Source of the DNA: Azolla caroliniana
Taxonomy: Eukaryota > Plantae > Polypodiophyta
Reading direction: 5' to 3'
Assembly: GCA_043228905.1 (NCBI GenBank)
Contig: JBHGNT010000003.1
Span: 13,206,001-13,270,000, forward strand
Length of the DNA: 64,000 bases
A program made the position numbers and the translations under genes. The notes beneath the pieces were generated by a model. It was given only the letters and a program-made list of their open reading frames with translations. It was not told the DNA's origin and ran no database searches. This document shows, in pieces, positions 271 through 59,542 of this stretch. The stretch's first letter is position 1. Each line of letters opens with the position of its first letter.

Positions 271-333
271 GACCCTTGATTCGAACTCTTGACTCCAACT
301 TGGAAACACGAGCCTCTTCACCAACAAGCTAAC
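271..333 (-). promoter_or_regulatory. tRNA-like A/B-box cassette, sense to the LTR
   Basis: Minus strand reads TAGCTTGTTGG ... GAGTTCGAATC with tRNA-like spacing. Confidence 0.45.
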
Positions 334-586: not shown

Positions 587-643
587 TAGCTTAGTGGTGT
601 ATACTTGGTGCTTGGTATACAAGGTTGAGGGTTCAAGTCCCTC
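587..643 (+). promoter_or_regulatory. tRNA-derived Pol III A/B-box cassette inside the LTR
   Basis: A-box TAGCTTAGTGG at 587. Perfect T-arm GAGGG-TTCAAGT-CCCTC at 627-643, followed by a T4 run. Confidence 0.7.
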
Positions 644-722
644 AATTTTACTTAATACAATATATAGCTTCATTCTTATATCATGAAGCACATTTATTAC
701 ACACTTTTACAAATAAATAGCC

Positions 723-778
723 TAGCCTAGTGGTATGTACATTGTATATCGTTTATAAGGATGTGGGTTCAAGTCTCT
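723..778 (+). promoter_or_regulatory. Second, duplicated tRNA-derived A/B-box cassette
   Basis: TAGCCTAGTGG at 723 and GGTTCAAGTCT at about 766, with tRNA-like spacing. Confidence 0.6.
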
Positions 779-841
779 CAAATATTATTAAATACAACAT
801 TTAAGCTCATTTTTATATCGTGAAGCACATTCTTCACGACA

Positions 842-2825: not shown

Positions 2826-2892
2826 TCTCCCTGAGCTAGAATGGGCATCCGGAGCTAGAATGGGCATGGTTTCCACCCCTGAATTCCCAAAG

Positions 2893-6014: not shown

Positions 6015-6061
6015 CGTGCTCTTTGTCTGATGCCATCACCTGTTTTCCCAGTGTTGGTTCC

Positions 6062-7642
6062 GGTTTTGGTTCTCCCCTTATAAGTATCGGTTCTCCCCCT
6101 CAAGTGCAGCATGTCGAGATGCTGAAGACCAAGCATCTCCAAAAGATGTTGCAACTTATCTAGGCTGAGAGGTTTTGTGAAGATGTTGGCAACCTGTCGA
6201 TCCGTCTAGACATACCGGAATTCTACTTCACCACTGAGGACCCGCTCATGCACGAAGTGATAATGCACCTCTATGTGCTTTGTCCGAGCATGAAACAAAG
6301 GGTTGATGGCACGCTACATGCTACTCATATTGTGGTAGTAGATCAAGATTGGAGTCGAGACTTCGATCCCGAGGTCTTGCAGCAACCGCCGAAGCCAAAT
6401 GGCTTCACAGGTGGCAATGGTAGCACCCCATTACTTAGCCGCAGTGCCCGATAAAACCACAATTGGCTGCTTTTTGCTGCTCCACACAACATCCACGCTA
6501 CCCTAATAAAACATGAATCCAGAAGTGGGCCGTCAATCCGACACATCTTCGGCCTAGTCGGCGTCTGTATATCCGACTAGTTTCTTGGTTATACCATGCC
6601 GGTATAACAGTCCTAGGTCCTTAGTACCACTAACATACCTCAGTATTCAGTGCGCGCATTGAAGGTGCTCCATAGTCGGCTTATGCATGAACTGACTTAT
6701 CACTCCAACTGGATAGCTAATGTCGGGTTGGGTGATTGTCAAATAAATGAGGCTTCCGACAATTTGTCAGAACCATTTCTCATCGCATGCCGGTTCAGAG
6801 TCGGGACGAAGCTTCACATTTTGGTCTAGGTGTGTGGAGACTGGTCGGCAATCCGTTATGCCGAACTTGTAAAACATATTCAGCACATAATGTTGCTAAG
6901 ATAACAATATGTCGTTGGGGCTATGGATCACTTTGATCCCGAGGAAGTAATGAAGGTCCCCCAAGTCCTTCATTTTGATTGCATCCGACAACTAGGACTT
7001 CAATTGACCGATTTCAACAAGGCCGGGTTTGGTGATGACTAGATCATCCACGTATAACAAGATACATACCCGACCTTGCAGACCTTTTTGGACGAGCAAT
7101 GAAGTGTCCGACATTGAGGCCGCAAACCCCATCTTACGTAACCGGTGAGTGATCTTCGAATTCCAAGCGCGGGGGGCTTGTTTCAAGTCGTAAAGCAATT
7201 CTTGAGTCAGCACACTACTGATTTGTTCATCTCCAACTAAAAACTGGGGGATGTGATCATGTAGACCTGTTCTTCAAGATCGCCGTGAAGAAACGCATTC
7301 TTCACGTCCATGTGGTGAAGATGCCATCCCCTTGCCGTAGCAACCGCTAGCACCACACAAACCATCGTCATCTTCGCTACCGGAGCGAAGGTCTCGTTGA
7401 AATTGATTCTGTGGGTTTGCGCGTACCCTTTGGCCACTAACTGGGCCTTATATCGGTTGACCGAACCATCAACATTATACTTTACCTCTAACGGCCAACC
7501 GGTTACAATCCAATCCGTCTCTCCAATCCGGCTCCTGGTTCTGGATACCATCCGGACACTGATCCGGTTCTCCATTCTTGACACTAATCCGGCTCTGGCT
7601 TATTCAACCGATCCGGATATGGTTGAGCTTGTTTGCCCAACA
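6062..7642 (-). mobile_element. Copia family A deletion derivative: LTR 5' piece (about 7485-7642) joined to RT-RNase H
   Basis: Minus-strand LTR start TGTTGGGCAAACAAGCTCAACC at 7642. RT motifs FAPVAKMT, MDVKNAFLHGDLEE and LLYVDD in ORFs 7237-7584 and 6992-7213. Confidence 0.8.
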
Positions 7643-11471: not shown

Positions 11472-11594
11472 TGTTACGGGCATGAGCATATAATATCCCG
11501 TGTTAAGTTTTACCGTAGTATTCTATACACGTGGAAGGTTAAATAAGATTGTAAAGAACGGAAGGATTACTTTTGATCTGTGGGATTGAGACAA
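11472..11594 (+). repeat. Truncated 3' LTR of the chromovirus
   Basis: Starts TGTTACGGGCATGAGCATATAATATCCC. Homologous to the LTR at 46394-46824 (minus) up to GGGATTGAGACAA, where the similarity stops. Confidence 0.75.
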
Positions 11595-11924
11595 GGGTGA
11601 AAGCATGTGAGTGGAAACAATTATCTATATCCTTGACATAGCTAATTAGCTATGGAAAAAGCTACCAGTGATAAATAGTCATTGTTGCACCATGAACGAA
11701 AACATTAGAATGTTTTAATTATATATATGAGTACCATAAATGTGCACCATAAATTATATACCGAATTCCTAGGTCCATTATGTATGATCCATTGCCACAT
11801 CACGTTGGCCATCACTTTGTGACTATTTAGGCTTAATTTACCGCGACTGTTCCTAAACACTATTGAGTTCACTCCTCCATTTCTGCCATTCTACACTAAG
11901 TTGCTGCCATTGTTTGGTCCAAGC

Positions 11925-14900
11925 TGTTGGAAATATGTCCCTCCAGTGGGAGGAGGAACCGATTGTCCAGAAGTTGCTAACAGTCGATGATTACGAGGAG
12001 CTGACTGATCGGACCAAGGAGTGCCAATAGTCGAAGACAGGGAAAATTGGACTGTTCGGAAAACCGATAGTCGAAGAGTCAAAAACAGTGAGTCAAAAGT
12101 TTGATGGTTCGACTATTATTATTATAGCAATAATAATAATGATACGTAGTAGAGGCTACATTTGTAAATAGCCCACACAGTGTATAAGTATAAATACACT
12201 TAGGGCAAAACATGAGAAAAAAAAAACTGACAGCAGAACAGAAGTAGCGCAAGAGGGTGTGAGACAGAGAGTGAGTGAGAGCGGCGTTATAGCTGTGTGT
12301 GTATAAGTATAAATACACTTAGAGCAAAACGTGAGATATTGGATTTTTTGTAGAACAAAAGTAGCGCGAGAGCGTGAAAGACAGAGAGAGAGAGTGTGAG
12401 CGATGCCATAGCAGTGTGCATAACATCAGACGTCAAGTGCCTTGCGTGGCTGATACACTCGAAGGAGTGTTGTAACATTCTGTGTTGTATATCCACTATA
12501 TATAGTGAAGTTCTGTTCCTATGGTTTTCTCCCATTTTAGGGTTTCCACGTTAAATCTCTGTGCACCATTGTTTGTCTTTCCATTTTGGCATATCTTTGA
12601 TTCGTATTTCAGCAGAGTTCGTTCATTGTGATTTGACCGAATGATTTCTCAACAAACTGGTATCAGCATGGAAGGAGGTGTGAGCAGTTTCCTAGGTATG
12701 ATAGTTCTAAACTCATAGAGATATGCAGACTAGAAGATAAAGATGGAAGACCTCCTCATCGTGAAAAACCTGTACGAGCTAGTCGATAGGGAAGACTATC
12801 CCAGGGGGGTATTGGAGTCGGATTGGAAACTTCTAGACAGAAAGGTAGTGGCCACCATCCGACAGTGCGTCGACATAAATGTCCTTCAGCATGTGGCCAA
12901 CGACACAAATGCCCACGAAATGTGGCAAAAGCTGTCGGGTCTGTATGAGAGGAACAACGCGCTCAATAAAACCTCACTGATGAGAAAAATCGTACGGCTG
13001 AAATACAGAGACGGTGAGAGCATCATCGAACACATTAGCACATTCATGGGGTATGTAAATCAACTTGTTGCGACCAAGTTTCCCTTGGATGATGCAATGT
13101 AGGCCATCCTGCTGATGTGCACACTACCGGATAGCTGGGAGAACCTGGTGGTTACTCTCAACACCTCTTGTCAAGAAGAGAACTCGTCTTTACCGATGGT
13201 GAAGACAATGATCCTAAATGAGGCAAGGAGGAAAGACAAAGGAGTCCTTTCCCAATCAGAGTCGAATCTGACTCAACATATGGAAAGAGGACGAGACCGG
13301 CGACGAAGAAGTCCGCAACGAATCGACAAATCCCATGCCAGATCGAAGTCTAGAGGTAAGCCCGTGTACTTTTATTGTGGAAAGCCTGGACACTTCCAGA
13401 AGGACTGTCGACACTTAAAGAAAGATAAGAGTGTCGGAAATAATGTCGAACCCAGGAATATTCAGGCTGATGAGATGAACACTTCGGCCATTGCTACAAG
13501 CAATGAAGAACTCCTGTTCATTTGTGAACAGACGAGTGCAAATCTTGCAAATGAAGATTGCATGTGGGTGATTGATTCCGGGGCATCGTTCCACATAACT
13601 CCGTCGAGAGAGTATTTCTCGACTTACATAGCTCCATTGAGTGCAGGGTAACTGGAGTCGGAAGTGTTTGCTTAATGACGTCGACAGGGTGTTCGACACG
13701 TCCCCGATATCAGATTGAATCTGATATCGACTGGAAGGTTAGATGACGAAGGCTATAGTTGTAGCTTTCGAAATGACAACTGGAAGTTCTGTCGAGGAAA
13801 TCTTATAGTGGCTCGAGCACAGAAAGAAGGCACATTATATATGATGCATGCCCGACTCTGCAAATCGGAAGTAAATGTGGCAGCCGACTTGGCAGGAGAA
13901 ATATGGCATAAGAGGCTAGGCCACTTGAGTGAGAAGGGAATGCACTTGCTAGCAGACAAGAAACTTCTACCAGAAGTCAAGGGAGTGCACCTGGAGAAGT
14001 GCGTCAACCACTTAGTCAGAAAGTAGAATAGAGCAGCATTCCACACAAGACCACCGAGGAGAAGAGAAGTGCCACTGGAATTGGTACACACGGACGTGTG
14101 CTATGTGGATGCTCCATCGCATCGAGGTGGACAATACATTGTGACGTTCATTGACGACTATAGTTGGAAGACATGGGCCTTCGTACTGAAGTCGAAGGAT
14201 CAAGTACTATCGGTTTTCAAGGAATTCCAGGCAAGAGCCAAAAGAGAGTCGGGTCGGAAGTTGAAGGTTGTCTGAACCGACAACGGTGATGAGTACAAAG
14301 GGCAGTTCGAGGAATACTACAAGAGCCAAGGTATTCGGATCGAATACACAGTGCCAAAGACCCTAGAGTTGAACGGGCTTGCAGAGAGGATGAGAGTAAA
14401 GAGTATGCTCTCTCATGCGAAACTGCCGAAATCCTGACGGGAACTGGTCGTTCCTTATGCGCAACGCTCGGCCACAACCGAGCTTAGAATGATACACAGA
14501 AAACGGGAAATAAAACGCGACACAAAGAAGAGACGAGGTACACAGGAGGTTTACGTGGAAAACCCCAAACTAGGGGAAAAACCACGGCAGCCCACAGGCT
14601 GCAAACTATCACTATGATGGAGTGTACAACAATGAGTTCACTGAGGCACCGACCTCGTGCTCAAAGATCTTCGCCACAGGCGGCGGTTACAATAGAGGCA
14701 ACGACCTCTCTCTCTCTCTCTCTCTGTGTGTACAGTTACGCACACTCTCAATTCTTGCACCAACAAGAATGACAACAACTTACACATATTTGCCCTAAGT
14801 CATATTTATACTAATATGACTTTTCAGCTATTTACAAATATAGCCACGATGGGCTCTCAGAAACATATTTACAAATATGTCTCTTCCTCCGGTTCTCACC

Positions 14901-17900
14901 GGGTCTGCGTCATCCGGCTCTCCGTAGCCGGGTGCTCCTCATTCGGTTCACACCGGGTCTGCGTCATCCGGCTCTCCGTAGCCGGGTGCTCCTCATTCAG
15001 TTCACACCGGGTCTGCACCATCCGGCTCTCCGTAGTCGGGTACTCCTCATCCGGTTCACACCGGGTCTGCATCATCCGGCTCTCCGTAGCCGGGTACTCC
15101 TCATCCGGTTCACACCGGGTCTGCACCATCCGGCTCTCCGTAGTCGGGTACTCCTCATCCGGTTCACACCGGGTCTGCATCATCCGGCTCTCCGTAGCCG
15201 GATACTCCTCATCCGGTTCACACTGACCGGGTCTGCACCATCCGGCTCTCCGTAGCCGGGTACTTCTCTTCCGGTTTCGGCCGAGGCCTATCGGCCTCGG
15301 CCGCGATTGTTCGTTGGCACTGTTCTTCTCCCTTCCCATCCGGAGGGACCTGTCTCCCAACACGAAATCCTATTGGGCTGAGGCGATGTACACAGTTGTT
15401 TATCTGATCAATAGGTCTCCCTCAATACCATTGAAGGGTGATGTCCCACAAAGGGTGTGGACAGGGAAGGATGTCTCCTACCGGCATCTGAGGGTGTTCA
15501 GATATCGGGTGTACATGCATGTACCGAAAGATCAGAGGTAAAAGCTCGACAACAAGTTGAAAGCATGCATATTCATGGGATACTCGGAAGATGAATTCGT
15601 CTATAGGCTATGGGACCTAGTTGACAAGAAGGTAGTGAGAAGTCGGGATGTAGTCTTTCTGGAAGACAAGAAGTTTAAAGACTGGAAGCAACAGAAGTCG
15701 AAATCAACTCCCCAGTCAACCCCGACTACAATCGACTTAAGGCCAAGTGAGTCGTCACCAATAGCTGTAAGGAGGTAGATGGCCGACAGAGCCGAATCCG
15801 AGTCGGTCGACTCGGAGAGACCGGTTGACTATGAGTCAGAGTTGGCAGAGCTGCAAAGGTCAATTGATGAATATCAGTTGGAATTACCCAACCAGGAGAG
15901 GCCGATTGGCGAGCAGAATCCTGACCAGAGAGAAGAGTTGGCAGAGACATCCGAAAGAGAGACAACAACGAGTGGAAGAAGATAACCACTCAGGGAGAGG
16001 AAAGCACCGACTACATATGCCAGCCAATACATCATCTTCACTAATGAAGGTGAACCGGAGTGTTATGAAGAAGCCATTGCCGACAAGCACAGAGCGAAAT
16101 GGTTGAATGCGATGCAAGATGAGTTGGAATCCTTGCACGAGAATTACACCTACGACCTCGTAGAGCTACCAAAAGGTAAGAGAGCACTTACGAATAAATG
16201 GGTCTACAAAGTGAAGACTGGAGAAGCCGACAATGAACCCAGGTATAAAGCCCGCATAGTGGTAAAGGGTTTTCAATAGAAAGAGGGCGTCGACTTTGAC
16301 GAAATATTCGCACTAGTCGTGAAGATGACATCCATTCAAACTGTTCTGAGCATAGCAGCCAGTATGGATTTGGAGATCGAACAGTTGGATGTCAAAACCG
16401 CATTTCTGCATGGGGAGCTAGAAGAAGAAATCTATATGCAGCAACCTGAAGGCTTTGAGGAGAAAGGGAAAGAGAATCTGGTGTGTCTACTGAAGAAAAG
16501 CTTGGACAGTCTAAAACAAGCTCCACGCCAATGGTACAAGAAGTTCGAGTCCTTCATGATGGAACACCGGATCCAGAAAACATAGGCCGACCACTATGTG
16601 TTCGTCAAAAGGTACGAAGAAGGAGACTTCTTGATTCTCTTGCTATATGTCGATGACATGTTGATAGTCGGTCAAGATACAAGGAAGATTGGAAGCTTGA
16701 AGAAAGCTCTCGGCAAATCATTTGCCATGAAAGACCTTGGACCGGCTAAACAGATCTTAGGAATGCACATAGTTCGAGACAGAACTCAAAAGGTGCTATG
16801 GTTGTCATAGCAGAAGTATGTGACGAAGATCCTAGAGAGATTTAACATGTTCGATGCAAAGCTGATCGGCTTAGTGTTGCCGACAAATTGTAGATTGAAG
16901 GCGAAGCAGTGCCCAAAAGGGGAGAAGGAAAAGGCTGAGATGAGGAAGGTACCATATGCCTCGGCCGTTGGCAGTCTAATGTATGCTATGGTCTGTACAA
17001 GATCAAACATAGCATTCGTTGTAGGAGCAGTAAGCCGATACATGAGTAATCCAGGGAGAGAACATTGGGCAGTAGTAAAGTGGATACTCAAGTACTTAAA
17101 GGGCACCTCGGGGGTATGCCTAGGGTATGGTGTCGGAAAACCTGTGCTGGAAGGTTTTACCGACTCGGACATGTCGAGAGATGTCGACTCGAGCCGATCC
17201 ACGTCAGGATACGTGATGACCTATGTAGGGGGAGCAGTGTCGTGGCAGCCCTGACTGCAGAAGTCTGTAGTTTTGTCGACTACAAAAGCAGAGTATATGG
17301 CAACGGTAGAGGCCGACAAAGAGATAAGATTTTTTCTCACCGAATTAGGGATGAAGCAAAAGGAGCTCTTGCTTCACTGTGATAGCCAAAGTGCCATACA
17401 TCTTGCCAAGAATGCTGCATACCACTCCCGGACCAAGCATATACAGAGAAGGTATCACTGGTTGCGGGAGAGAGTCAAAGAAGGAGAGTTTTCCTTGGTG
17501 AAGATCCATACTGACGACAATGGATCCGACATGCTAACGAAGAACCTACCTATGGACAGACTCAAAGTCCGTCGATAGAAGACAGGATTGACTGACTTCC
17601 TCCCATAGGAATGAAGGGGAGTTTGTTGGGAATATGTCCCTCCAGTGGGAGGAGGAACAGACTGTCCAGAAGTTGCTGACAGTCGATGACTATGAGGAGC
17701 CGACTGACCGGACCAGGGAGTGCTGACAGTCAAAGGCAGGGAAAGTCCGACTATTCGGAAAGCCGACAGTCGAAGAGTCGAAAACAGTGAGTCGACTGTT
17801 TGTTAGTTCAACTATTATTATTATAGCAATAATAATAACGATATGTAGTAGAGGCTACATTTGTAAATAGCCCATACAGTGTATAAGTATAAATACACTT

Positions 17901-18235
17901 AGGGCAAAGCGTGAGATATTCGTTTTTTTGTAGAACAGAAGTAGCGCGAGAGCGTGAGAGACAGAGAGAGTGACTGTGAGCGGTGCCATAGCGGTGTGCG
18001 TAACAGTAGATGTCAAGAGCCCTGCGTGGCTGATACACTCGAAGGAGTGTTGTAACATTCTGTGTTATATATCCACTATACATAGTGAAGTTTTGTTCTC
18101 GTGGTTTTCTCCCGTTTTAGGGTTTCCACGTTAAATCTCTGTGCACCATTGTTTGTCCTTTCCTTTCTGGCATATCTGTGATTCGTATTTCAGCACAGGT
18201 CGTTCATTGTGATTTGACTGAATGATTTCTGAACA
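11925..18235 (+). mobile_element. Complete but decayed Ty1/copia element (family C) with a 5-bp TSD
   Basis: TSD CAAGC at 11920-11924 and 18236-18240. LTRs 11925-12654 and 17624-18235 (TG..CA). PBS-Met TGGTATCAG at 12658. PPT GAAGGGGAG near 17613. Gag knuckle CGKPGHFQKDC, protease WVIDSGAS, IN, RT YVDD and RNase H, with many stops. Confidence 0.95.
14435..15362 (-). mobile_element. Solo LTR (copia family D) containing about 7 copies of a 54-bp repeat, inserted in the integrase
   Basis: Minus-strand termini TGTTGGGAG...CCCGTCA. Flanking direct repeat CGAAATCC. The host reading frame KLPKS|YWAEAM resumes after it. Homologous to 31134-31992. Confidence 0.9.
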
Positions 18236-18240
18236 CAAGC

Positions 18241-18935
18241 ATCATCTGCCATTGTTCGCTCCTATTGAGTTCACTCCTCCATTGCTGCCATTCTACACTG
18301 AGTTGCCGCTATTGTTCGATCGTGGATTGCTGCCACTTTTCGATCCGACGGAGTTCACTCCTCCGTAACTACCACCATTCTACACTCAGTTGTCACCAGT
18401 GTGTGTTCCAAGCATCATTTGTCACTATTTGATCTGACAGAGTTCACTCCTCCATTGCCACCATTCTACACTTAGTTGTCACCATTGTTCAGTCCTGGAT
18501 TGCAATAATTGTTTGATCCGACGGAGTTCACTCCTCCATTGCCACCATTCTACACTTAGTTGTCACTATTGTTCAGTCCTGGATTGCAATAATTGTTTGA
18601 TCCAACGGAGTTCACTCCTCCATTGCTGCCATTCTACACTCAGTTGCCACCACTATTTGGTTCAAGCATCATCTGCCACTGTTCGCTCCTATTGAGTTCA
18701 CTCCTCCATTGCCGCCATTCTACACTGAGTTGCTGCTACTATTCGGTCTTGGATTGCTGCCACTGTTCGATCTGACGGAGCTCACTCCTCCATTGTCGCC
18801 ATTCTACACTCAATTGCCACCATTGTGCATTCCAAGCATCATCTGCCACTTTTCGATCTGACGGAGTTCACTCCATTTACACCATTCTACACTCAATTAC
18901 CACCATTGTTCATTCTTGGATTGCAATAACTGTTC
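18241..18935 (+). repeat. Tandem repeat array with a unit of about 85 bp (core GAGTTCACTCCTCCATTGCYGCCATTCTACACT); first unit at about 11860-11924, before the copia insertion
   Basis: About 8 cores spaced 82-89 bp apart. The array is split by the copia element at 11925-18235. Confidence 0.85.
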
Positions 18936-19223
18936 CGTCTGTTGATTATCTTGTGTATTGTTGTGTATAATATTGTGTATTGCAGAATAATTTTGTGTAT
19001 TGTTGTTGCCCATAGTCATCTTAGCTCGTTCTTGACGGTGGTTGAGAAGCTTTCACTCCACTGCAACAAACATAAACTTACCAATGGTGGGATCGCTCTT
19101 GTGAATAACCAGTTTGCATATGGTTTAGTAACTAGATACGTGTCTTTTTTTGTGGAATTTTACAAATGAATATGTCAAGCCAAATGGAAGGGGAAGGAGG
19201 GTGTTTACCAATAAATACCCCTC

Positions 19224-23247: not shown

Positions 23248-24232
23248 TGTATGGATCATGAAAATCCGTCACTATGTGCGGATTGTGAGGCGAAACCGCC
23301 GGGGTTCTGGACTGGAAGGATTTAGTGCAACACGTACAACACAAGCCATTCACATATTAGACGAGTAGATGAGAGAAAACATAGTTTATTGCATAAGAAA
23401 ATAGACTCTTTTATAATTCAAGAATCTTGTTACAACGGGTTGGAGATGAAAATGACAGATAAAAATTTTAAAGAAAGGAGCGAACAACCATATAAGGAGT
23501 GGTCAAATATGAATATGAGAGATAATTTTTGACAAGAAAGATTGAGCAAGCCAAGCCAAGAGTTTCATATCAATATGAGAGATAATTGGTTTTGGAATCC
23601 CTAGAGAGAAGAAGAAGGGAAAAAAAAAAGTAGAGGGAAAAGAAATGGAACATATATCGACCTCTCTCTTGATCCTCCTTCCCAATGTTACTTTGCATGT
23701 CCACTTTTAGTTGCATGGCTTTTATTTTTAGTTGTATGCTTCCATTTTTAGTTGCATGCCTTTTACTTTTAGTTGCATGGCCTTGGCTTTTAGTTGCATG
23801 CGACCGTCCGCATAATTCGGCCAAATGACCCAATCATCCATAATGTTTAGCCTGTGCGCAATCCGTGCGTGCGTCGCAACCAAACCATAGACGCGTCTAC
23901 GCGCAAAAGTCCCGACCGCGCAGTGTACGCATCCACGCACGCGTGTGTCCCAACCGCAACATGTACGCATCCACACACACGCGCATGCTGACCGCGTTGT
24001 GTACGCATCCGCGCGCTCGTCCACACACACGCGTCCCACAAGGCCGTGCACGCGTACGTCCGAAACGTCTAGGCGGCACGCACACACGCGTCCCACGAGG
24101 CCGTGCACGCCGCCCAAAACTTGCACACGTGCATACGTTCGAAAACGTCCCCGCAACCGTGCACACGTGTGTACGCCCGAAGCGTCCACATGGTCGTGCA
24201 CACACACGTTCATCCAAAACGTGCACACCACC
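23248..24232 (-). mobile_element. Probable LTR (uncertain family) truncating the transposase; contains a CACGCG/GTGCAC-rich segment and TTTTAGTTGCATG repeats
   Basis: Transposase homology ends abruptly at TGTATGGATC (23248). Four TTTTAGTTG(C/T)ATG units at 23705-23800. Low-complexity purine-pyrimidine alternation at 23860-24232. No TSD confirmed. Confidence 0.45.
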
Positions 24233-24588
24233 CAGTGTAGCCCAAGTCACCTTGAACATTCTGTGCTCCACACATTGATATAACTTGATACTTCATAGTG
24301 TAGCCCAAGTCACCTATAACATTCTGTGTAGCCCAATGTTGTCCTATCTATGTGGGATATACCACAGTTTTGTCTTTTCTTTTTTTCTTCAAACTTCACA
24401 CTCACATAACTTGATACTTGTTTATCCATTTAATGCGAAGTAAAATACACTGTGAAGCTCTTAAAGAAATCTATCTATATGAATACATTAAGGTAATCTT
24501 AAATAATTGTTTTACTTGTTTTCATATCGTGTGTGAAAAACCACACGACAGTGTGCATATGAATTGTGTAGCACATGTAGTCGAATTT

Positions 24589-28584: not shown

Positions 28585-31500
28585 TGTTGAGAGACAAGCT
28601 CAACATCGGCCGGATCGGCTGAAGAAGCCGAGGACCGGATCGGTTGGGACCGATCGGTTAGGCCGAGTGTGTAAACCGGGAGGTCGTTAGGAAAGATATT
28701 CCGTGAGGAATATATTTGGGAGTTAGTGTAGGAGCTCTTGATGAGCATTGAAGTACTGTCAGTACTTCGATCAGTCCTTCTAGGACTTGTATAAAAATGT
28801 TCACTGAGCACGTCTTATGTACAGACTGAGTATTATTGTTGAATATAATTTTTTGTGTTTCTCTCTCTGTCTCTCCCGTGTATACCGTGTAAGCCCAAGC
28901 TCTCCATTGAACCTGAGTTTCCTTCCTCTGTTCTGTCTTCATACTTGCTTCCGCACGCTACTTTTTACATGGTATCAGAGCGCGAGGGTTGAGAACCTCT
29001 CTGCAGCCGACAGAGCTTAATGAAGAAGAACAAGAAGAACGATGGATAGAGGCATGGCGAGCTCGCTTCCAACAGAGAAGCTCGATAGAACCAACTACGC
29101 GTCTTGGTCCTACAAGATGCACCTGTACCTGCTCGGGCACGGCTACTGGAGTTACGTCGAAGGAGCTAATGACGCGGCACCCAAATCGACACACAGAGAC
29201 TTCCCGTCGTGGGAGCAATCGGCGAGCAGGGTACTATACGGCTTCGCATCGTGTGTGGGCAAACAACTATTGAGCTATGTTCGGGATGCAAAGATGCCGA
29301 AGGGTGCGTGGGAAAATCTGAAGAAGATTTTCGCCGCGAGCACCACAGCTAGGAAGCTCCAGCTCCGACAGGAGTTGAGCAACCTACGACAACGCGACTT
29401 GTCGGTGGTGGACTATACCTCGAAGATCAAGGATATCTGTGACTCCCTCGCCTCCATAGAGGTGAACATTGAGGAGAGCGAGATGGTCCAGATCTGTCTC
29501 GGAGGTTTGGCGTCGAAGTTCGGAGCATTCCGAACGGTTGTGTGTACCCGGGAGAATACGCCGTCCTTTTTCGACTTACAGTCGATGCTCCTAGTAGAGG
29601 AGAACCACGCGGGTGCGTCTACAAGCACGCACACCGACAACAGAATGTTGTACACGGAGGGAGATAGGCCCCGTGGACGTGGAGGACGAGGCGAGTCGGC
29701 GCGCAATGGAGGCAGCCCGACGAGATCAAGGAAGAAGGCACCGAAGTGATGCCGACAGCAACTCCGGACCCTCCGGAAATAGGGGGAGTCGAAGCGATGA
29801 GAACTGGCAAGGGAAGGCCATCGCAGAGTGTTGGTACTGTGGCAAGAAAGGCCACAGGGAAAGTGAGTGCTGGAAGAAGCGCGCCGACTCGGAGAGAACC
29901 GGTTCTGGAAATGGCTCCGGACATACCAACAAGGGAAATCGGCAGCGATCGCAATACGCCAAAGACTCCGGGAGAGCCGGAGAAGGGTCTGTCTTCGTGA
30001 CGAGACACGAAGCAAACTCAATGAAACAGAGCACCCCGAGATCGGACGAGGTGTGGTATGTAGACTCTGGCGCGTCAAACCACATGACGAGCCATAAGGA
30101 GTGGTTCTCGTACCTTGAAAAACTGATGCAACCTGGAGTAGTCGCAACTGGAGACGACACTCCGCATCCGATCACGAATGTCGGAGAAGTTCCCCTTAGC
30201 CATGTCGAGCAGAAAGGGAAACTCATGAACGTGCTGCACGTTCCGACAATCACGAAGAACTTGGTCTCGGTCGGACAGATCGTTGACCAGGGATGGAGGT
30301 TCGGTTTACACACCTCGGGTGCTTCATTGAGGAAGAAGGCCGTGTGATTGCGCAAGGGCGCAGAGACGGGAGGATGTTCATCCTCGACTCCACTGACGGC
30401 GGCACCGCAATGTTCGCAAAGGGACAAAAATCCGAGTCGGACATCGACTTGTGGCACAAGCAGATAGGCCACGTCAACCACCAACGGCTTCAATATCTGC
30501 AATCGAAACAAGTAGTATTCGGATTGCCAAATTTAGTGGCCGAAAGGCACAAATTTGTGAAGCCTGCCAGCTCGGGAAGCAACACCGACTTCCCTTCCCA
30601 AATGAGTGAAACCGGAGCCGGAATAAGCTCGACCTTATACACTCCGATGTATGGGGGCCGGCACAAAACGTTAGTCTTGGCGGGAGCCGATATTTCGTCT
30701 CCTTCATTGACGATCACACGCGGCACACGTGGATCTACCTCATTGAGAGGAAGAGCGAAGTCTTCGACTGTTTCCGTGACCTCAAAGGGTTCGTGGAAAC
30801 GGAAACAGGACGGAAGATCAAGTGCCTGCGGTCGCATGGCGGGAAAGAGTACTTTTCCGGTCAATTCAACGCTTATCTACAACAAATGGGAATTCGCCGC
30901 GAATTCAGTTGTAGATACACGCCGGAGCAGAACGGCGTGGCCGAGAGAAAGAATCGGTCAGTTGTGGAAGCGGCACGGGCAATGCTGGAGGAGAATAGCT
31001 TGCCCAAGTTCTACTGGGCCGAGGTGGTATGGACCGCGGTATACATCCAGAACCGGATCGGAGACAAAGTGTCGGCGCACGAGCTATATTTCGGAACGAA
31101 GCCGAACTTGCGACACTTGAGGGTGTTCGGTAGTGTTGGGTGAAAGGTCCCTCCAGATGGGAAAGGAGAAGAACAGTGCCAATGAACAAACCCGGCCGAG
31201 GCCGAAACCGTCTGAGGTGTACCCGGCTACGGAGAGCCGGATGATGCAGACCCGGTGAAGACCGGATGAGGAGTACCCGGCTACGGAGAGCCGGATGATG
31301 CAGACCCGGTGAAGACCGAATCAGGAGTACCCGGCTACGGAGAGCCAGATGGTGCAGACCCAGTGAAGACCGGATGAGGAGTACCCGGCTACGGAGAGCC
31401 GGATGATGCAGACCCGGTGAAGACCGGATGAGGAGTACCCGGCTACGGAGAGCCGGATGATGCAGACCCGGTGAAGACCGGATCAGGAGTACTCGGCTAC

Positions 31501-34500
31501 GGAGAGCCGGATGGTGCAGACCCGGTATGAACCGGATGAAGAGACATATTCGTAAATATGTTTCTGAGAGTCCATCGAGGCTATACTTGTAAATAGCTGA
31601 AAAGTCATATTAGTATAAATATGACTTAGGGCAAACTTTTAGTTGTGTGTTGTTGTTTTTTTTCATTATTCTTGTTGGTGCAAGAATAGAGAGTGTGCGT
31701 AACTGTACAGAGAGAGAGAGAGAGAGAGAAAGAGGTTGTTGCCTCTGTTGTAACCGCCGCCTGTGGCGAAGACCTGTGAGCACGAGGTCGTTGCCTTAGT
31801 GAACTCACTGTTGTACATTCTTACATAGTGACAGTTTGCAGCCTGTGGGCTGCCGTGGTTTTTCCCCTAGTTTGGGGTTTTCCACGTAAACCTCCTGTGT
31901 ACCTTTCCTCTTCTTTGTGTCGCGTTTTCTGTGTATCATTCTAAACTCGGTTGTGGCCGAGTGTTGCGCATAAGGAGCCTTGAGTTCCGTCAGGTAGCAT
32001 TGCGTATGTGCATATACTGAAGGAGAAAAGGAGGAAGCTGGACGCAGAGGCTGAGAAATGCATCTTGGTCGGTTACTCGAACAGCAGAAGGGTTATAAGT
32101 GCTATAACCCTCGCACCAAACAAGCGCGTGTCAGCCGCAACGTTGTGTTTGACGAGTCCGCGTCCTGGTACCTGCCCTCGACTACGAACCCCGACTCCAA
32201 TCCGAGCTCTGACGATGAGGTCAGCGAGGCCGAGATGCCTCCGAATGAGCCCGAAATCGAGACCCGCGACGAGAGTCCGATTCACTCTGGTTAAGTGGAC
32301 CGATTGGACGACTGAGTCGGTACGACCAGTCCGATGAAGAGCCGGCGAGTAGTGGAGACTCGGCCGTGCATTCCCCACGCAGGAAGCCGAGGAGACGGCT
32401 TACGCGCAAAGAGAAAGGGAAGAAGAAGGTGTCGGATTCCGGCACGGAAAGGAACGAGTCAGACTGACGCGAGTCCGACTCCGAGGGAACCGGTGACGGG
32501 TCTTTAAAGGTGAAGACCGCGTCGACCGAGAAGGCCTCGACATCGGCTAATGTGAGATTATGCCGATCTACCCGCCAGAAGAATCCTGTTTTGCGGTTCG
32601 GATACAACGAGTACATGGCGCATCATTATGCGTACATGACCCGTGTAGCGGAAGTGCGTGAGCCGGAGACCTACGCAGAAGCGGCGAAGGACGCGAATTG
32701 GCGTGCTGCGATGGAGGAAGAGATGCACGCATTGGCAGAGAACTAGACCTGGGACCTGGTTGACACACAGAGAGGGGTAAAACCGATCGGGTGTAGGTGG
32801 GTGTACAAGGTCAAGTACAACACCGATGGCTCGGTCAACCGGTACAAGGCTTGGCTAGTGGCAAAGGGCTACGCGCAAAAACACGGCATCGACTACGATG
32901 AGACGTTTGCGTCGGTCGCGAAAATGACGACCGTCCGTGTTTTGCTCACAATAGCCGCGGCCAAGGGGTGGCACTTACATCAGATGGATGTAAAGAATGC
33001 GTTCCTGCAAGGTGACCTTGAGGAACAAGTGTACATGGTACAGCCCCCCGGATTTCACTCCGGAACGAACTCCTCGGTAGTATGCCGACTGAAGAAGTCC
33101 CTTTACGGACTGAAGCAAGCCCCGCGTGCCTGGAACGCGAAGATCACGCAACAACTGCGTCGGATGGGCTTCGTCACGTCAAAATCAGACTCTTCCCTGT
33201 TCATCCGGATAGGTCAACTTGGACCGGTTAGTATTCTACTATATGTTGATGACTTGGTCATCACCGGCGCCAACCTCGGTGAAATCGACCGCGTGAAGCT
33301 CCAGCTTGCGGCATCGTTCGACATGAAGGATCTGGGGGACCTTCATTACTTCCTCGGGATCGAAGTGATCCGTACCCCCGAAGGCATATTGATTAGCCAA
33401 CGTCATTACGTGCTGAGTATGCACTTCAAGCTCGGGATGGCCGACTGTATGTCCGTCTCGACTCCTCTGGATAGAACCGTCAAGCTTCGTCCCGATACGG
33501 GAAAGGAATGCGACCCGACGAGGTTCCGACAAATTGTCGGAAGCCTCATATACTTGACCATCACCCGACCCGACCTCAGTTATCCGGTTGGGGTGATCAG
33601 TCAGTTCATGGCGCGACCTACCAAGGAGCACCTTCAGTGTGCGCAACGCGTACTTCGGCACTAAGGACCGCAGACTGCTATATCGGACCGGTGCAGCCGC
33701 GCAGTTAGTCGGCTACACCAATGCTGATTGGGCTGGCAACGCCGCCGAGTCTGGATACGCATTCTCCCTCGGGAGTGCCACGATCGCGTGGAGCAGTAAG
33801 AAGCAGCCGACAGTTGCACTGTCGAGCACCGAAGCCGAGTACCGAGGAGCGGCTGTCGCGACATGCGAAGCCATATGGTTGAAGCGGCTACTTAAGGACT
33901 TGCAAGAGGAGGTGACCGATCCAACGACGATCTACTGCGACAACCTCAGCAGCATCCAACTCGGGAAGAACCCCGTCTTCCACGCACGGACCAAGCACAT
34001 TGAGGTGCCGAGTCGGTTCGGATGTTTGATTCAGATATGCTGAATCAACCGAGGCCCAAGCGGAAGAAAAGGCTGCAGGAGAAGCGTCAACACCGCAACA
34101 GCAGAAGAGCTGATAAAGGCCGCATGAGCAGACAAGCCGATTGGAAGGGTCAAAGCGCGCGGAGTCGAACAAGTCGAGGAGCGCGAGCGAGGCGAGAAGC
34201 CAGGAGGAACCGGTGCTGTGAAGATCCCGAAGAGCCTGAAGTTGAGCTTGAGGGGGAGTGTTGAGAGACAAGCTCAACATCGGCCGGATCGGCTGAAGAA
34301 GCCGAGGACCGGATCGGTTGGGACTGATCGGTTAGGCCGAGTGCGTAAACCGGGAGGTCGTTAGGAAAGATATTCCATGAGGAATATATTTGGGAGTTAG
34401 TGTAGGAGCTCTTGATGAGCATTGAAGTACTGTCAGTACTTCGGTCAGTCCTTCTAGGACTTGTATAAAAGTGTTCACTGAGCACATCTTATGTACAGAC

Positions 34501-38340: not shown

Positions 38341-38344
38341 GAGC

Positions 38345-41300: not shown

Positions 41301-42613
41301 CCTTTTTCTGAAAAATGTCATCTGCTTACACGGTTTGCCTGAGGATGTCACTTCTGATCGAGGTCCTCAATTTATCTCCCACTTTTGGCGCCGACTGCTC
41401 CAGACATTCGGGACTTCTATGAACTTGTCAACCGCGCACCGCACTCAAACTGATGGCCAAACCGAAAGAGTCAACCAAATCCTCAAACAATACCTCCATT
41501 GTTCAATTAGCTACCAACAAGACGATTGTGTGGACCTCCTTGCCATGGCGGAATTTGCCTACAATAACAGTATCCATGCCTCAACTAAAGTTTCCCCATT
41601 CTTTGCAAATTACGGTTTCCACCCTCATTTCAGCATTTCCATTCCGGAGATATCCATCAATCTGCCGGCCGAGAAACGTGCCCACACCTTACAAGATGTC
41701 CACCGTGACCTCTCCCTCGAGCTCAATGCCGTATAAAGCTCACGTTGACCGACATCGCTTAGTCGTGCCGACCTTCGCAATCGATGACATGGTTTGGTTG
41801 CTACGTCGGCATATCGCAACCACCCATCCCTGCATGAAGCTCGACTACAAAAAGCTAGGCCCCTTCCATATCCTCGAGCACGTTAACCCAGTCGCCTTTC
41901 GGTTAGCGCTTCCCCCCACATTTCGGCTTCACAATGTTTTCCACGTCTCTCTCCTCGAACTCTGTCATCCTTCTCGCATTCCAGGACGCCAACCTCCTCC
42001 GCCGTCGCCCATGGAATTATCGACAGGTGAGGAGTATGAGGTTGACCGGATCCTCGACTCTCGCTTGCGTCGACGGCGACTTCAATACTTGGGTCTTATG
42101 GAAAGGTTACCCTCTTTTGGATGCCACATGGAAACTAGTTACACACTTACAAAATGCACCGGAGGCAATTCGTGCTTTTCACCAACGATAACCCCATAAA
42201 CCGGCCTCGGGTGTTAGGAGGCGGCCTTAGAGGGAGGATAATGTCATAGACATATGCCACAAAGGAAGGTAGGGATTGAACCCAAGACCTCATGGTCTCT
42301 ATTGGGCAAACCCTACCACTTTAGCTACATATGAATCCTTGTATTTAATTCAACTTCATATAGTATAGATTGAACATTGGAAGTTCCTAGCTTACATGCA
42401 TTTTCATTCTCTAGCTTGCATGCATCCTCATGCACTCTATTTCTAGTTGGCTTACATAGCCCTACCCTCTTGTATAAATACTCATGTGCACCTTGATTCT
42501 AATCAAGGTGAACAACACAAGTTACGGAATCTATAAGTTGAGTTCTTGTTCTTTTCCTCTCTCTTGTTCTCCAGCCTTATCTTCGTTCTACTCTATTATA
42601 CTTGTTCGTGACA
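38345..42613 (+). mobile_element. Tcn1/Tf-like gypsy chromovirus, 5'-truncated: gag knuckle, PR, RT, RH, IN, chromodomain, PPT and 3' LTR (42242-42613)
   Basis: [65 protein letters not shown] and EYEVDRILDSR. PPT AGAGGGAGGA. LTR TGTCATAG...CGTGACA. Confidence 0.92.
42268..42328 (-). promoter_or_regulatory. tRNA-derived A/B-box cassette in U3 of the chromovirus LTR
   Basis: Minus strand reads TAGCTAAAGTGGTAGGG...GAGGTCTTGGGTTCAATCCC. Confidence 0.7.
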
Positions 42614-43214: not shown

Positions 43215-45295
43215 TGTCGTGATGTGGCATGTCTAGTGTGAGAAAAAATCAAAAATTGAGGATCCACACACATTTCACGAATACTCGTAAAAATGAAAAT
43301 AAATTAGTAATAAATAAACCTAGGTCACAATGGCATTGAGTGCATATAGAGGGCTGCAAGTAGGATTTAAACCTTGCACCTCTAAGATAAGAGACAATTA
43401 CCTTACCACTAAAGCTACTACTAAGTGCATTAAATTTTCTATATTTCTTTCTCATATTCAGTATTTAGTAGGAAACAAACGTGTACACAAAACCATGGTT
43501 TAAAGCCCATGGTTTTCTGCATGTCACGAAAACCATGGCTCAAAGCCCATGTTTTTGTGCATGGACAAATCTATAAAACCCCTAGTATGGCTTGTGTATG
43601 TGATATCACCATCAATATAAAATTCTTCTTATAAATATACTTCTTCTTTTACCGTCGATCAATATTATTATACTTCTTATAATTGTCAATCTTTGGATCT
43701 TTTCAAAATTGGAAATTGGTTTCCTCGACTCCTATCCACATCATCAAATCTTTTCGACAAGTTCGCAAACGTCCTCTCTGGTCCGAGACCCCGGTGGTTC
43801 CGCTCAAGCTAACGCACACACGCACATCTTCGCGACATCATTTGGTGAACCCGATGTGAAGAGCGGTAGGGGAGGATGAAGATGGACGAGGAATATCTCA
43901 TGAAGGCAGTGTCAAAAATGATGATGGAATTTTCGAGAGAAGGTAAAAGACGAGACGCGGCCCAACAAGCCGTCGAAAGCGTGGTCGAGCAAGCCGACTA
44001 TTTCGACGGGGGCATAGTCCAAAGTTTTCTAGAGACCTACAATGCCGAGATGGATTTGAGAGGTGTGAATGAAGCTACGAGGCTGGAGTACTTTTGTCGG
44101 GTGGTGGCTAAACCGATCTACACAGAGGTAAAAGAGCTTCGAGAAGCTCATGATTTGTGGGTGACTTTCACGGAGTCTCTATTGAAGGCATATGGCTACG
44201 AGAGACCAAAGGGACGAGGTCGGCTTGAATTCGACCAGTGGGTGAAGACCCACCAAGGTGCGACACAAGCATTCCTAGACTTTGAGTGTCGTTTTTCTCA
44301 ACTGTCAGAGTAGGAACAAAGATTGGTGGGGGTGGATAAGGTCTTGTTGTTCATGATGTCGATTGATTGAAGGGAAAGGATGGCCATTGGACTCAAACTT
44401 GAAGAAGATTATGGTGCAAATGGCCTCACTGAGGATTGGAGAAAAGTGGAAAGAGTATGCCGACTGCATGATAAGAGGAAGACAAGATTCTCTTCGGCAA
44501 CAACACAACCCACGAGGGATGGTGAAAGGAGGACGGGATGTGACTACACACAACCACCTAAAGAAGAAAGCTTGAAGATGGAAGGTTCGACGGTACTCGA
44601 CATAGAGGCCTTTGTAAAGGAGGCATATGAGAGTTTAAAGGTGCAAGTCAAGGCCAAAGAGAAGCCTAGAATGGAGCCAAAACCGAGACAATTGGTGATC
44701 GAGGAAGAGAAGATCTCCCGGGAAATGTAGACTAATGATGCGGCCAATACGAAGGCCCAAGTTCGGTACGACAATACCATGGGAGAAGGTGTAGAACAAG
44801 CCAACTTCTCAACTTATGGAGGAACGATGGTTAAGAGAAATACCGAAGCCTCGAGAGCAGGAAATGCCTCTCTAAGAGTGGACAAGCATTTCGGAACACA
44901 CATTGTGTCCGAAATATCAAGTGATGAAGCTGCAAGTGTGAGAAAAGCTTGCATGATTGAGGTAGATAAAGAGTGCGAGGTCGACATGATTGAGGAGGTA
45001 GCCACAAGAAACAACATCAAGATAGAGATGGCTATGGACAAGTCGATGGCGGATGGTCGTGTCGAGACTTTCCTAACACTTGATCTAGAGACTTGGGTAG
45101 TTGCATCTGAGAGCCAACATGAGACCCAAGAGACGGAAAGTGGTGGGGAAGCAAAGATTGAAGCCAATGTGAATAACAACGTTGAAAGAAAGATGGCTAT
45201 GGATGAGAAGACGGTGACCAATGGTGCCAAGGTTCTCCCCACAATTGTTCCTGAGACTTCGGCAGTTGTGCCTGAGAGCCAACATAAGAAACATT
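43215..45295 (+). mobile_element. LTR element with a tRNA-Trp PBS: LTR 43215-43837, PBS 43843-43860, gag-like ORF from 43876 and an acidic repetitive tail; 3'-truncated
   Basis: LTR termini TGTCGTGA...TCGCGACA. TGGTGAACCCGATGTGAA matches the complement of the plant tRNA-Trp 3' end (TGGTGAACCCGACGTGAA) with 1 mismatch. The downstream ORF is gag-like by position. Confidence 0.7.
43355..43418 (-). promoter_or_regulatory. tRNA-derived A/B-box cassette in the LTR
   Basis: Minus strand reads TAGCTTTAGTGGTAAGG...AGAGGTGCAAGGTTTAAATCC. Confidence 0.6.
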
Positions 45296-46824
45296 TATTT
45301 TCCCCTCGTTTACCACAAACTATGTTGGTAAGTTACCTAACCTCAAGTCTCATAATTACAATAGCTTACGCCAAAGTGCAACGTAATGGTCAAGCCAAAT
45401 GAGCCCTCTCTTCGTACTAGGCCCACATGGCCCATCACATGGTTACGTCATTACGAATGTCTTTCGTAAGAAGGATCTCATGGTGGCATCGTATCCATGT
45501 AATGAGGGAGTGATGATGGATATGTGTGTCATAGGAGCGACCTCACATGAAGTGGGTCAAACCCTATGTTCTCAATGTCATTGTGGCTATCATTGTTTCA
45601 ATACGTAACGAAATCGAAGGGACCAATGGGGATGTCAACAAAAAAATTGTTGAAAAAAGGATGGTGACTATGCCATTCTCAAAAAAATGTGAGGACGGCC
45701 ACCAAGATCCTTTCCCTGAAAAGGAAAACATTCGATATAGAAATCACGTAATAACTAATATACACATATGTGTATTTATTACATATATACGATCAAATAC
45801 GTATACACGTGACCACATGCATATATTTAAAAAATCGTAACATCAAATAGCCAATAATGATGTAATCGAGATACATAATCGAGGCATATAGCCTCTACAC
45901 ACACGAAACATCCAAAAATAAGGGTGGTCAATCGTAATACGCAATAGAGGTATTGACCTCTTAATCATACGGCACCAAACGCATATCATTTAAATAGAAG
46001 TAGAGGTGTTGACCTCACATACTTCACATGCATATGTAACATATGTCAGTGAATGTAATACGCAATTGAGGTATTAACCTCATATGCATACGACACAAAT
46101 CACATATCAAATATATGTCAAATAAGGTATTGATCTCATACACATATGAATACGTTTTATAAAACCAATCCATTACCACTACAACATCATTAAATCAAAA
46201 AAGAAAAAACATACTAACTATACATGATTAGATTGGAAGAAGAAAGAATAAAAAAACAACAAAGAGTTACTAAATTTCCTTTGTTGATCGTTATCTAGAT
46301 CCAAGTCAACCGCATGTCGATCGATCATCATCCATCAAGAAGACAACAAAAACCAACAAAAGAAACATTAGAAACATAAGCTCTGATACCAACTGTTCGA
46401 GCGATGATCTAATGTAAGCATATGGTAAGGATTTATATATGAAATAAGAAAGGAGAGAAAGAAAGAAGCGATCAGTGACGGGATCGACACGGACTCGAGC
46501 CTCGATCAGCATCCCATACTACCGTTGTGGCATCGAGTCGTCCCTGGTGTTGACGCGCTCGGTACAAGAGTTGACCCACCACGAAACAGAGTCTCGACGT
46601 AGTCAAGAGATGATGAACTCAGGGTAGCTAGGCCTCATATTTATAGCGAGACCCAAGGCCCCTAGGCAAGTTCACACTTGTCCTAATGGGTTGTCTCAAT
46701 CCCGAGGATTAAAAGTAATCCTCCCCTTTATTTACACTCTTGTTTAACCCTCACACTTATTCAGGTGTATAGAATACTACGGTAAATTCTCACCATGGGA
46801 TATTATATGGTCATTCCCGTAACA
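45296..46824 (-). mobile_element. Gypsy 5' LTR (46394-46824) with PBS-Met (46380-46391) and a repetitive leader; same LTR family as 11472
   Basis: Minus strand reads TGTTACGGGAATGACCATATAATATCCC...CGAACA then TGGTATCAGAGC. Repeats of about 60 bp (GAGGTATTGACCTC) at 45880-46150. The left boundary is approximate. Confidence 0.7.
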
Positions 46825-47592
46825 CGACTCTTTTAGGCCCGAACAGTTGGCTCCTCCCACTGGAGGGACATATTCCCAACAAACTCCCCCGTCAGTCCAG
46901 TGGGTGCGAGTCGGTTAGTCCTGTCTTCTATCCACTGACTCTAAGTCTGTCCATTCGTAGGTTCTTCGTGAGCATGTCAGATCCATTGTCGTGGGTATGG
47001 ATTTTCACGAGGGAAAACTCTCCTTCATCTACATTCTCTCGCAACCAGTGATACCTCCTTTGTATATGCTTGGTCCAAGAGTAGTATACAATGTTCTTTG
47101 CAATATGTATGGCCCTCTTATTATCACATTGGAGCAATAATTCTTCTTCCTTCGTCCCAAGTTCACTGAGGAAACTCTTCATCCAAATCAGCTCCTTGCT
47201 AGCCTCTACCACTGCCATATACTCTGCCTCTGTGGTCGACAATGCCATAGACTTCTGTAGTCCTGATTGCCACAACATTACTCCCCCCTGCATAGGTCAT
47301 CATGTACCCTGACGTGGATCGGCTCGAGTCTGCATCCCATCACATGTCTAAATTGGTAAACCCTTCGAGCATGGGCTTGCTGAAACCATACCTTAGGCAT
47401 ACCCCTGAGGTGCCTTTTAAGTACTTGAGTATCCATTTCACTGTTGCCTAGTGTTCTCGTCCTAGATTACTCATGTATCGGCTTACTATTCTCACAACAA
47501 AAGCTATGTCTGGTCTCATGCAGACCATAGCATACATTAGGTTGCCTATGGCTGAGGCATATGGTACTTTCTTCATCTAAGCCTTTTCTTTC

Positions 47593-48009
47593 TGTCAGGA
47601 ATAGTACTGAAACAGAGAGGGAATTGGTACTAAGAGATTGATGATTAGTACTAAGAGGAAAAGAGGGTGTAGAACAATCGAGAAAAAGGAGAGAGAGAGA
47701 ATGATGATAACAAAAGGATATATTATGTGTGAAAAGAATATACAAGGATAGCTAGGAGGCTTAAGACTGGTGTTGAACCGATTTGGTTTTCGATAATACC
47801 ATGTGCCTCTTTTTATAGTGGCTTTAGGAATACTCTTGACATTTCTAGAATGTTCTAGAGAAATCTAGAATATACATGGATTTCCTAAGTGAAATAATAT
47901 TCTTTGTATTACAATGTATAGCTTAAGTGTATTACAATAATATTCGCCCATGTGCCACAAGGTCATGGGCTCAAATCTTTTTGAAGCCATACCATGCTAA
48001 ATCATGACA
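47593..48009 (-). mobile_element. Solo LTR (gypsy-type, TGTCATGA...CCTGACA) in the copia RT, with a degenerate tRNA-like cassette at about 47918-47980 (+)
   Basis: TSD CTTTC at 47588-47592 and 48010-48014. TATA on the minus strand near 47815. Cassette reads TAGCTTAAGTG...AAGGTCATGGGCTCAAATC. Confidence 0.85.
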
Positions 48010-59537: not shown

Positions 59538-59542
59538 AAAAC

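Follow-up and report, generated by a model that had tools for sequence, protein, structure and literature searches.

We found that four long terminal repeats (LTRs) of Ty3/gypsy retrotransposons in a 64 kb stretch of Azolla caroliniana contig JBHGNT010000003.1 (the window; position 1 is its first letter) carry tRNA-type promoter cassettes, each a pair of A and B boxes that stands near the LTR 5' end and points out of the element. A first-pass annotation had noticed five such cassettes and read them as a built-in TFIIIC barrier or divergent promoter for RNA polymerase III (Pol III). Our comparisons support the conserved divergent Pol III-type promoter as a prediction, while the barrier or anti-silencing part of that reading remains putative. 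Our preferred interpretation, to which we give an even chance, is that the cassette is an outward-facing Pol III/TFIIIC module that would hold the RNA polymerase II (Pol II) promoter of the LTR open against silencing.

Both strands of the window were scanned for pairs of A and B boxes separated by 25-65 nt, using the textbook type-2 consensus, and all five proposed cassettes were recovered. Two of them lie on the forward strand, antisense to LTR1. Cassette 1a (587-640; A box 587-597, variable-loop motif 622-626, B box 630-640) has no mismatch and is followed after 5 nt by a run of four T (T4), and cassette 1b (723-776; A box 723-733, B box 766-776; one mismatch) is its tandem duplicate (78% over 121 nt). 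Cassette 2 in LTR2 (42272-42327, reverse strand; A box 42316-42327, B box 42272-42282) is again free of mismatches, with a CAA upstream and no T4 within LTR2. Cassette 3 in LTR3 (43363-43417, reverse strand; A box 43406-43417, B box 43363-43373) has one mismatch and a T4 63 nt further on, still inside the LTR. The weakest is cassette 4 in LTR4 (47919-47978, forward strand), a degenerate copy with three mismatches and a T run immediately after it. As first described, all five are antisense to their own LTR, upstream of the TATA box and directed outward; the distance between the end of the B box and the LTR 5' end is 30-201 nt.

Cassettes 1a, 1b, 2 and 3 are the sole A/B pairs on either strand of the 64 kb with at most one mismatch, and likewise with at most two. 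A second, independent motif (variable-loop AGGTY plus B core) gave 11 matches in the window at up to two mismatches; cassettes 1a, 1b, 2 and 4 account for the four best of these, with zero or one mismatch, while cassette 3 is found among those at two. Dinucleotide shuffles in 500-bp blocks contained on average 0.02 pairs with at most one mismatch and reached four pairs in 0 of 200 trials, or in 2 of 200 when two mismatches were allowed. When each LTR was shuffled separately, a comparable pair arose in 0 of 1000 trials for LTR1, LTR2 and LTR3 and in 9 of 1000 for LTR4. Shuffled DNA does not reproduce the cassettes, and a chance origin is ruled out; the LTR4 cassette by itself is modest evidence only. 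In agreement with the first-pass annotation, which had noticed no cassettes in copia LTRs, the 12 copia-type LTR stretches that we scanned (bounds approximate) contained no pair better than four mismatches. Three other gypsy-type LTRs of the window also lack a cassette: 11472-11924 and 46394-46824, which represent another chromovirus family, and ~23250-24550, which is Phygy-type with a U5 like that of LTR3.

The best-defined carrier is LTR2 (42242-42613, forward strand), the 3' LTR of a Tcn1 chromovirus. It is preceded by a frameshifted integrase C-terminus with chromodomain (41423-42199, forward strand) and by the polypurine tract of the element (42229-42241, forward strand). The proteins of this element match full pol proteins that bear a chromodomain at 60-82% for the ten best matches, and the element groups near Tcn1-type pol proteins with the chromodomain after the integrase, as in Tcn1. 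The label Tcn1 rests on features from PMC6317226; the protein tree itself includes no named Tcn1 reference. LTR3 (43215-43837, forward strand) is the 5' LTR of a Phygy-type non-chromovirus and has an ACGT flank. Downstream of it lie a tRNA-type primer-binding site (PBS; 43843-43860, forward strand), possibly of the tRNA-Trp type, and a broken Ty3-type gag-like frame (43876-45402, forward strand). Relatives of this frame resemble retrotransposon gag by language-model features (score 0.94), a lead only, as few features are common. Each of these Phygy-type gag relatives (P0024-P0036) consists of one frame, 268-719 aa in length, that has a long acidic tail; neither a Pfam domain nor pol is present, and they may represent a separate gag open reading frame or gag-only elements.

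LTR1 (1-841, reverse strand, truncated at the window start) is not the LTR of the gypsy element beside it; it is nested in that element and disrupts its integrase. LTR1 starts with TGTCGTG, has a GCGG (NCGN) junction and no polypurine tract from 842 onward. Its LTR3-like start and its junction indicate that it is probably Phygy-type; its PBS falls outside the window. A weak sense-strand A/B-like pair (four mismatches) at 277-323, in the R/U5 part of LTR1, is not separable from chance. LTR4 (47593-48009, reverse strand) is a solo LTR inside a copia element; its 5-bp target-site duplication (TSD) and a U3 block of 40-50 nt common to five Tcn1 LTRs make it probably chromovirus-type. NCGN-type junctions were seen on one side only each, as ACGT at LTR3, GCGG at LTR1, and ACGA and ACGT at two related ends of locus L048. 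This pattern matches the 4-bp NCGN target site of Phygy, whose PBS is of the tRNA-Trp type in 81% of elements (PMC6317226). According to the same source, Tcn1 among plants is restricted to mosses and club-mosses and Phygy to Physcomitrella. No pol linked to LTR1 or LTR3 was found, and linked-locus searches of viral and prokaryote collections were empty for both Phygy-type and Tcn1 elements. By these sequence features, the cassette is present in one chromovirus and one non-chromovirus lineage, an assignment that is firm for LTR2, well based for LTR3 and indirect for LTR1 and LTR4.

The LTR families of the window are common to DNA runs of at least three organisms. A single metagenome scan with an integrase-chromodomain alignment, made without regard to LTR content, yielded 78 loci (from the best 80 of 400 relatives). 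Of these, 53 had a usable LTR start; 21 loci had none and four doubtful ones were dropped (L042, L066, L072, L075), and the starts of L001, L005 and L026 were placed by hand. One clade of the protein tree (local support 0.962) comprises 27 usable loci and LTR2. Within the first 130 nt of these 28 LTRs, an antisense B core was present in 23, the B core with AGGT 8 nt before it in 22 (5 of 8 LTR clusters), and both together with the D-loop TGG 31-33 nt upstream in 16 (3 of 8 clusters). The corresponding shuffle rates were 0.0044 for the B core with AGGT and 0.00012 with TGG included. The full motif in sense orientation was found in none of the 28 clade LTRs, and the B core with AGGT in none of the 26 LTRs outside the clade (10 clusters). 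The B core alone is uninformative, being present in sense orientation in 9 of these 26 and in about 6% of shuffles. Since gag and pol frames are open in eight of nine long loci, with pol frames of 1200 aa, the carriers include autonomous elements. Among the LTR2-family copies at contig loose ends, many in two runs are closer to the A-box consensus than the window copy. A fourth Phygy-type cassette was identified in locus L048, where it lies 110 nt from an LTR end whose junction is of the NCGN type. In locus L006 (1-10678) we observed two tandem Tcn1 units with a common LTR, each with open gag and pol, possibly an assembly collapse, and an antisense A/B-like pair also within each pol (2464-2527 and 7479-7542).

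The boxes are also more conserved than the neighbouring U3 sequence, a property on which the first-pass annotation had made its claim depend. In family I (the ten LTR2-family LTRs) we counted 0.58, 0.20 and 0.36 substitutions per column in the A box, the variable loop and the B box, compared with 1.13 in the spacer and 0.92 in the flanks; mean pairwise identity was 0.87, 0.96 and 0.92 in the three conserved segments, 0.64 in the spacer and 0.59-0.72 in other parts of U3. By parsimony the boxes had fewer substitutions than sequence elsewhere in families I, II and III, with optimistic p values of 0.002, 0.009 and 1.5e-5, or 0.017, 0.001 and 5e-5 when only G/C columns were used. Between the tandem copies 1a and 1b of LTR1, 3 of 27 box sites differ, compared with 11 of 27 sites elsewhere (p = 0.014), and listed contig variants, 40 of 68 in number, touch 4 of 54 box sites compared with 12 of 54 spacer sites. 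The gap from A to B measures 31-33 nt in 20 of 27 cassettes. A CAA within 10 nt upstream of the tRNA-equivalent start was present in 10 of 19 cassettes and in 46 of 335 background windows; an upstream CAA at this place has been reported for plant tRNA genes (PMC13578239, PMC3082873). This motif suggests that a gene was captured with its flank, or that initiation is under selection, rather than that a mature tRNA was copied.

These rates bear on the idea that the cassette is a neutral passenger, a tRNA gene or the head of a short interspersed element (SINE) that was captured once, spread between lineages by LTR exchange and is now decaying. Such a history would fit the loss or wear of the cassette in one Phygy-type LTR of the window and in 6 of the 28 LTRs of the clade. 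It would also fit loci L020 and L022, which hint at LTR swapping: both combine an LTR of family I with proteins that group with the family-II carrier L015, which suggests that LTRs can move between protein lineages. We nevertheless consider this account quite unlikely. In three families, in the tandem pair and in the contig variants, the boxes accumulate changes at about half the rate of spacer and flanks, and they have been kept even though the spacers show no clear similarity between types. They have also been kept while new LTR ends were added. In L002, L003, L018 and L019 the present LTR end is 35-40 nt beyond an older one, so the U3 termini lengthened while the cassette stayed.

Despite this conservation, the cassettes do not encode recognizable tRNAs: ARAGORN reported none in the window and none in 60 of 60 loci scanned, and Rfam gave no tRNA match. 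The T arm, thought at first to be conserved as a whole, retains only the T loop and the inner three stem pairs. Over 27 cassettes, pair 49:65 is broken in 21 and pair 50:64 in 20, whereas 51:63 is paired in 25, 52:62 in 19 and 53:61 in all 27, for which ascertainment is partly responsible in the case of 53:61. RNAalifold predicted a non-cloverleaf helix without a compensatory pair for ten family-I cassettes. An acceptor-like stem seen by eye in one subfamily was rejected because it fails across the family. A T4 within the LTR follows all four Phygy-type cassettes and the LTR4 cassette, but only 4 of 22 Tcn1 cassettes. The loss of the tRNA fold and the lack of a terminator in most Tcn1 copies point to selection on a DNA promoter. 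Judged by these alignments, the cassette would be what is left of a tRNA gene, with its A and B boxes kept by selection, and not a functional tRNA.

A different possibility is that the selected product is an antisense Pol III RNA which, when made from the 3' LTR, would span the beginning of U3 together with the polypurine tract and the last part of pol, and would either tune the RNA or reverse transcription of the element or feed small interfering RNAs. The invariant orientation of the cassette, the upstream CAA motifs that suggest genuine initiation, and the defined short RNAs that would end at the T4 of the four Phygy-type cassettes and of LTR4 are consistent with this idea. We regard it as unlikely though not negligible, since the spacer and the downstream sequence evolve as fast as the flanks, no fold is conserved, and in 18 of 22 Tcn1 cassettes the absence of a T4 in the LTR means that transcripts from the 5' LTR would enter arbitrary host DNA.

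Independent insertion of tRNA-derived SINEs, an explanation raised in the first-pass annotation itself, was rejected: the cassette has the same place and orientation across families, stands at a fixed place in ten of ten LTR2-family LTRs, and shows neither a tail before the LTR end nor a TSD of its own. An ancient SINE head is a possible source. A pattern search did not reveal the source tRNA. One cassette aligns over 66 nt at ~71-73% to annotated phage tRNAs (E 0.7-8), which is not significant alone; the phage BLAST matches were of mixed tRNA isotypes (E 0.2-10), and the best matches of cassette 1a lie in non-tRNA genes. Comparing spacers between types, we found 10 of 66 pairs that were equalled in at most 25 of 500 shuffles, and the clear ones lie within a type. 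Three weak similarities between Tcn1 and L048 spacers (3, 4 and 18 of 500 shuffles) do not separate a single origin from several.

We then asked how the cassette relates to the Pol II promoter of the LTR. In LTR1 a TATA box is predicted at 402-409 (reverse strand) by motif match only. In LTR2 the predicted TATA box (42473) and a self-priming motif 32 nt downstream (42505-42515) occupy 42473-42515 on the forward strand. Eight of nine Tcn1 relatives (L001, L006, L012-L015, L017 and L029) have, exactly 32 nt downstream of the TATA box, an 11-nt motif to which the PBS is complementary, and LTR2 shows the same spacing and the self-priming arrangement of Tcn1. This position of the PBS complement places the predicted Pol II start of Tcn1 there. 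The 11-nt motif itself forms a hairpin in R. Self-priming was predicted for Tcn1 by Neumann 2019 (PMC6317226); Novikova 2010 (PMC2864245) detected no priming signal for SM-Tcn1. The cassette stands 100-210 nt upstream of the TATA box and is directed away from it. From these motifs we predict that genomic RNA starts at a separate, self-primed Pol II TATA promoter and not at the cassette. The cassette as a primer of reverse transcription was rejected in view of the self-priming PBS of Tcn1 and the tRNA-type PBS of LTR3.

With this layout, a Pol III unit might also dampen the neighbouring Pol II promoter and limit the activity of the element so that it stays tolerated. The model for such an effect is tRNA gene-mediated silencing in yeast. 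The same anatomy and the same pattern of conservation would be expected, and the A box is just 100-210 nt from the TATA box. We find this explanation improbable, as the carriers are high-copy families in four DNA runs and RLG1 is strongly expressed in Physcomitrium (PMC7466625), an element likened here by lineage and not as a known carrier of the cassette.

It is very unlikely, in our estimate, that the cassette mainly serves integration, with TFIIIC at the U3 end of the cDNA aiding nuclear positioning or target choice of the integration complex as a cis version of the use of Pol III factors by Ty3 and Ty1. By this analogy the short distance to the LTR end would matter: the B box ends 23-64 nt from the terminus in 16 of 22 scored Tcn1 cassettes and 5-11 nt in five of them (at most 33 nt in most), so that a TFIIIC footprint would reach the att site. 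However, the box is 65-201 nt from the end in Phygy-type LTRs, Tcn1 has a chromodomain already, and the CAA motif and the conserved A box indicate transcription initiation.

According to the barrier interpretation introduced at the outset, TFIIIC would bind the A and B boxes and TFIIIB would be loaded inward of them, in the stretch of 100-210 nt that separates the A box from the TATA box. The resulting nucleosome-poor patch could act as a barrier or as a helper for the Pol II promoter, the backwards orientation would steer any Pol III transcript away from that promoter, and the transcript itself would be of little importance. tRNA genes are known to lie in nucleosome-poor DNA with reported insulator activity (PMC11346459), and B2 SINEs form chromatin boundaries in mouse (PMC8136502). 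Moss chromovirus RLG1, again a comparison by lineage, has been proposed to target heterochromatic islands of transposable elements (TEs) and is yet transcribed (PMC7466625). More tentatively, and with clearly less than an even chance of being right, we propose that two deeply separated autonomous Ty3/gypsy lineages each fixed an outward-facing tRNA-gene promoter at the U3 edge, where it forms a built-in barrier that would allow transcription inside heterochromatic TE islands.

Several observations weigh against this interpretation. Six of the 28 clade LTRs, including three entire clusters, lack the B core with AGGT; families II and III have a degenerate A box; and the three cassette-free gypsy-type LTRs in the window show that some elements can dispense with the cassette. 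The rate effect at the boxes is about two-fold in size, the p values are optimistic since sequences and columns are not independent and box columns were picked from the motif, and the block from TATA to R in family I (identity 0.88) is as conserved as the boxes. Methylation is described as impairing TFIIIC binding, and the barrier evidence that we cite comes from yeasts and mouse, not plants. After removal of the B-box CpG, CpG near the cassette is barely less depleted (0.38 versus 0.22) and CHG is equal, and these counts gave no clean sign of local hypomethylation at the cassette. A at tRNA position 57, which abolishes the B-box CpG, occurs in all five window cassettes and in family I, while families II and III retain the CpG; this base could reflect deamination or escape from methylation.

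If the tentative proposal is true, cis-acting Pol III DNA would be a transposon anti-silencing device present in thousands of genomic copies. For the question of how heterochromatin-targeting retrotransposons remain transcribed, a conserved Pol III module next to the Pol II promoter is a precise and testable handle. Small-RNA-gene promoters in LTRs would extend from miniature non-autonomous to full elements, and their role would shift from driving RNA to shaping chromatin. At the edges of LTRs, carrier genomes would contain many TFIIIC sites that are mobile and Pol III promoters that point outward, with a bearing on the boundaries of TE islands and on false tRNA or SINE calls.

The window as a whole is made up of Ty1/copia, Ty3/gypsy and long interspersed element (LINE) fragments nested in one another. 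A young copia element (54143-59538, LTRs 99.4% identical) sits within a LINE-like element (52945-64000). Tandem repeats of 54 nt inside one copia element match the LTR U3 of another copia family in inverted orientation (14827-15275, 31153-31584, 54197-54324). There is also a 2.1-kb AT-rich array of ~111-nt units with many short palindromes (19999-22126) and an array of ~85-nt units (18202-18934) with an extra copy at 11860-11924. Among 21 LTR ends tested, the first 30 nt of eight fold into a hairpin better than at least 99% of shuffles; LTR2, LTR3 and LTR4 do not belong to these. Terminal U3 hairpins were seen at 818-839 and 24527-24548 of the window and at the LTR 5' ends of L001, L011, L013, L014, L067 and L048.

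The first-pass annotation knew of no precedent for such cassettes. [quoted passage not shown] We found no account of an antisense tRNA-derived promoter in autonomous moss gypsy LTRs, in a search whose coverage excluded most subscription journals, Repbase reports and bioRxiv supplements, and PMC10886601 contains no moss entry. Helenus is similar in its tRNA-derived LTR sequence with conservation centred on boxes A and B, in the non-functional tRNA and in the occurrence of solo LTRs with TSDs. Helenus elements are non-autonomous and 311-1263 bp long (PMC10886601), whereas the present carriers include autonomous gag-pol elements. The Helenus boxes are in sense orientation in the few supplement LTRs examined, including those of the sole plant family (Selaginella), and here they are antisense. 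Unlike Helenus, the present LTRs retain a predicted Pol II TATA promoter. The tRNA-derived A and B boxes in the LTR are shared; non-autonomy and a sense promoter are not. The same paper argues that the autonomous partners of Helenus need Pol II and are unlikely to have such an LTR sequence, and mentions a resemblance to part of a tRNA for "not a few" Repbase LTRs, with TRIMs alone analysed.

Cassandra and Ajax TRIMs are comparable in carrying the Pol III promoter of a small-RNA gene in both LTRs, but this promoter is derived from 5S genes, the elements are non-autonomous, and that of Cassandra drives the RNA of its own element (PMC10886601). The present cassette is directed away from the element and, unlike that of Cassandra, is unable to make genomic RNA. 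Moss Tcn1 shares the chromodomain and the self-priming PBS, and Phygy the NCGN target and the tRNA-type PBS, with the elements described here; the accessible descriptions of both (PMC6317226, PMC2864245) list TATA and CAAT boxes, PBS and TSD and no tRNA-like U3 segment. Finally, boundaries formed by tRNA genes, TFIIIC sites and B2 SINEs (PMC11346459, PMC8136502) likewise place A/B-box DNA at the edge of a chromatin domain. In those cases, from yeasts and mouse, the DNA belongs to host genes or to free SINEs, whereas the boxes described here are fixed within an LTR, where their boundary role is putative.

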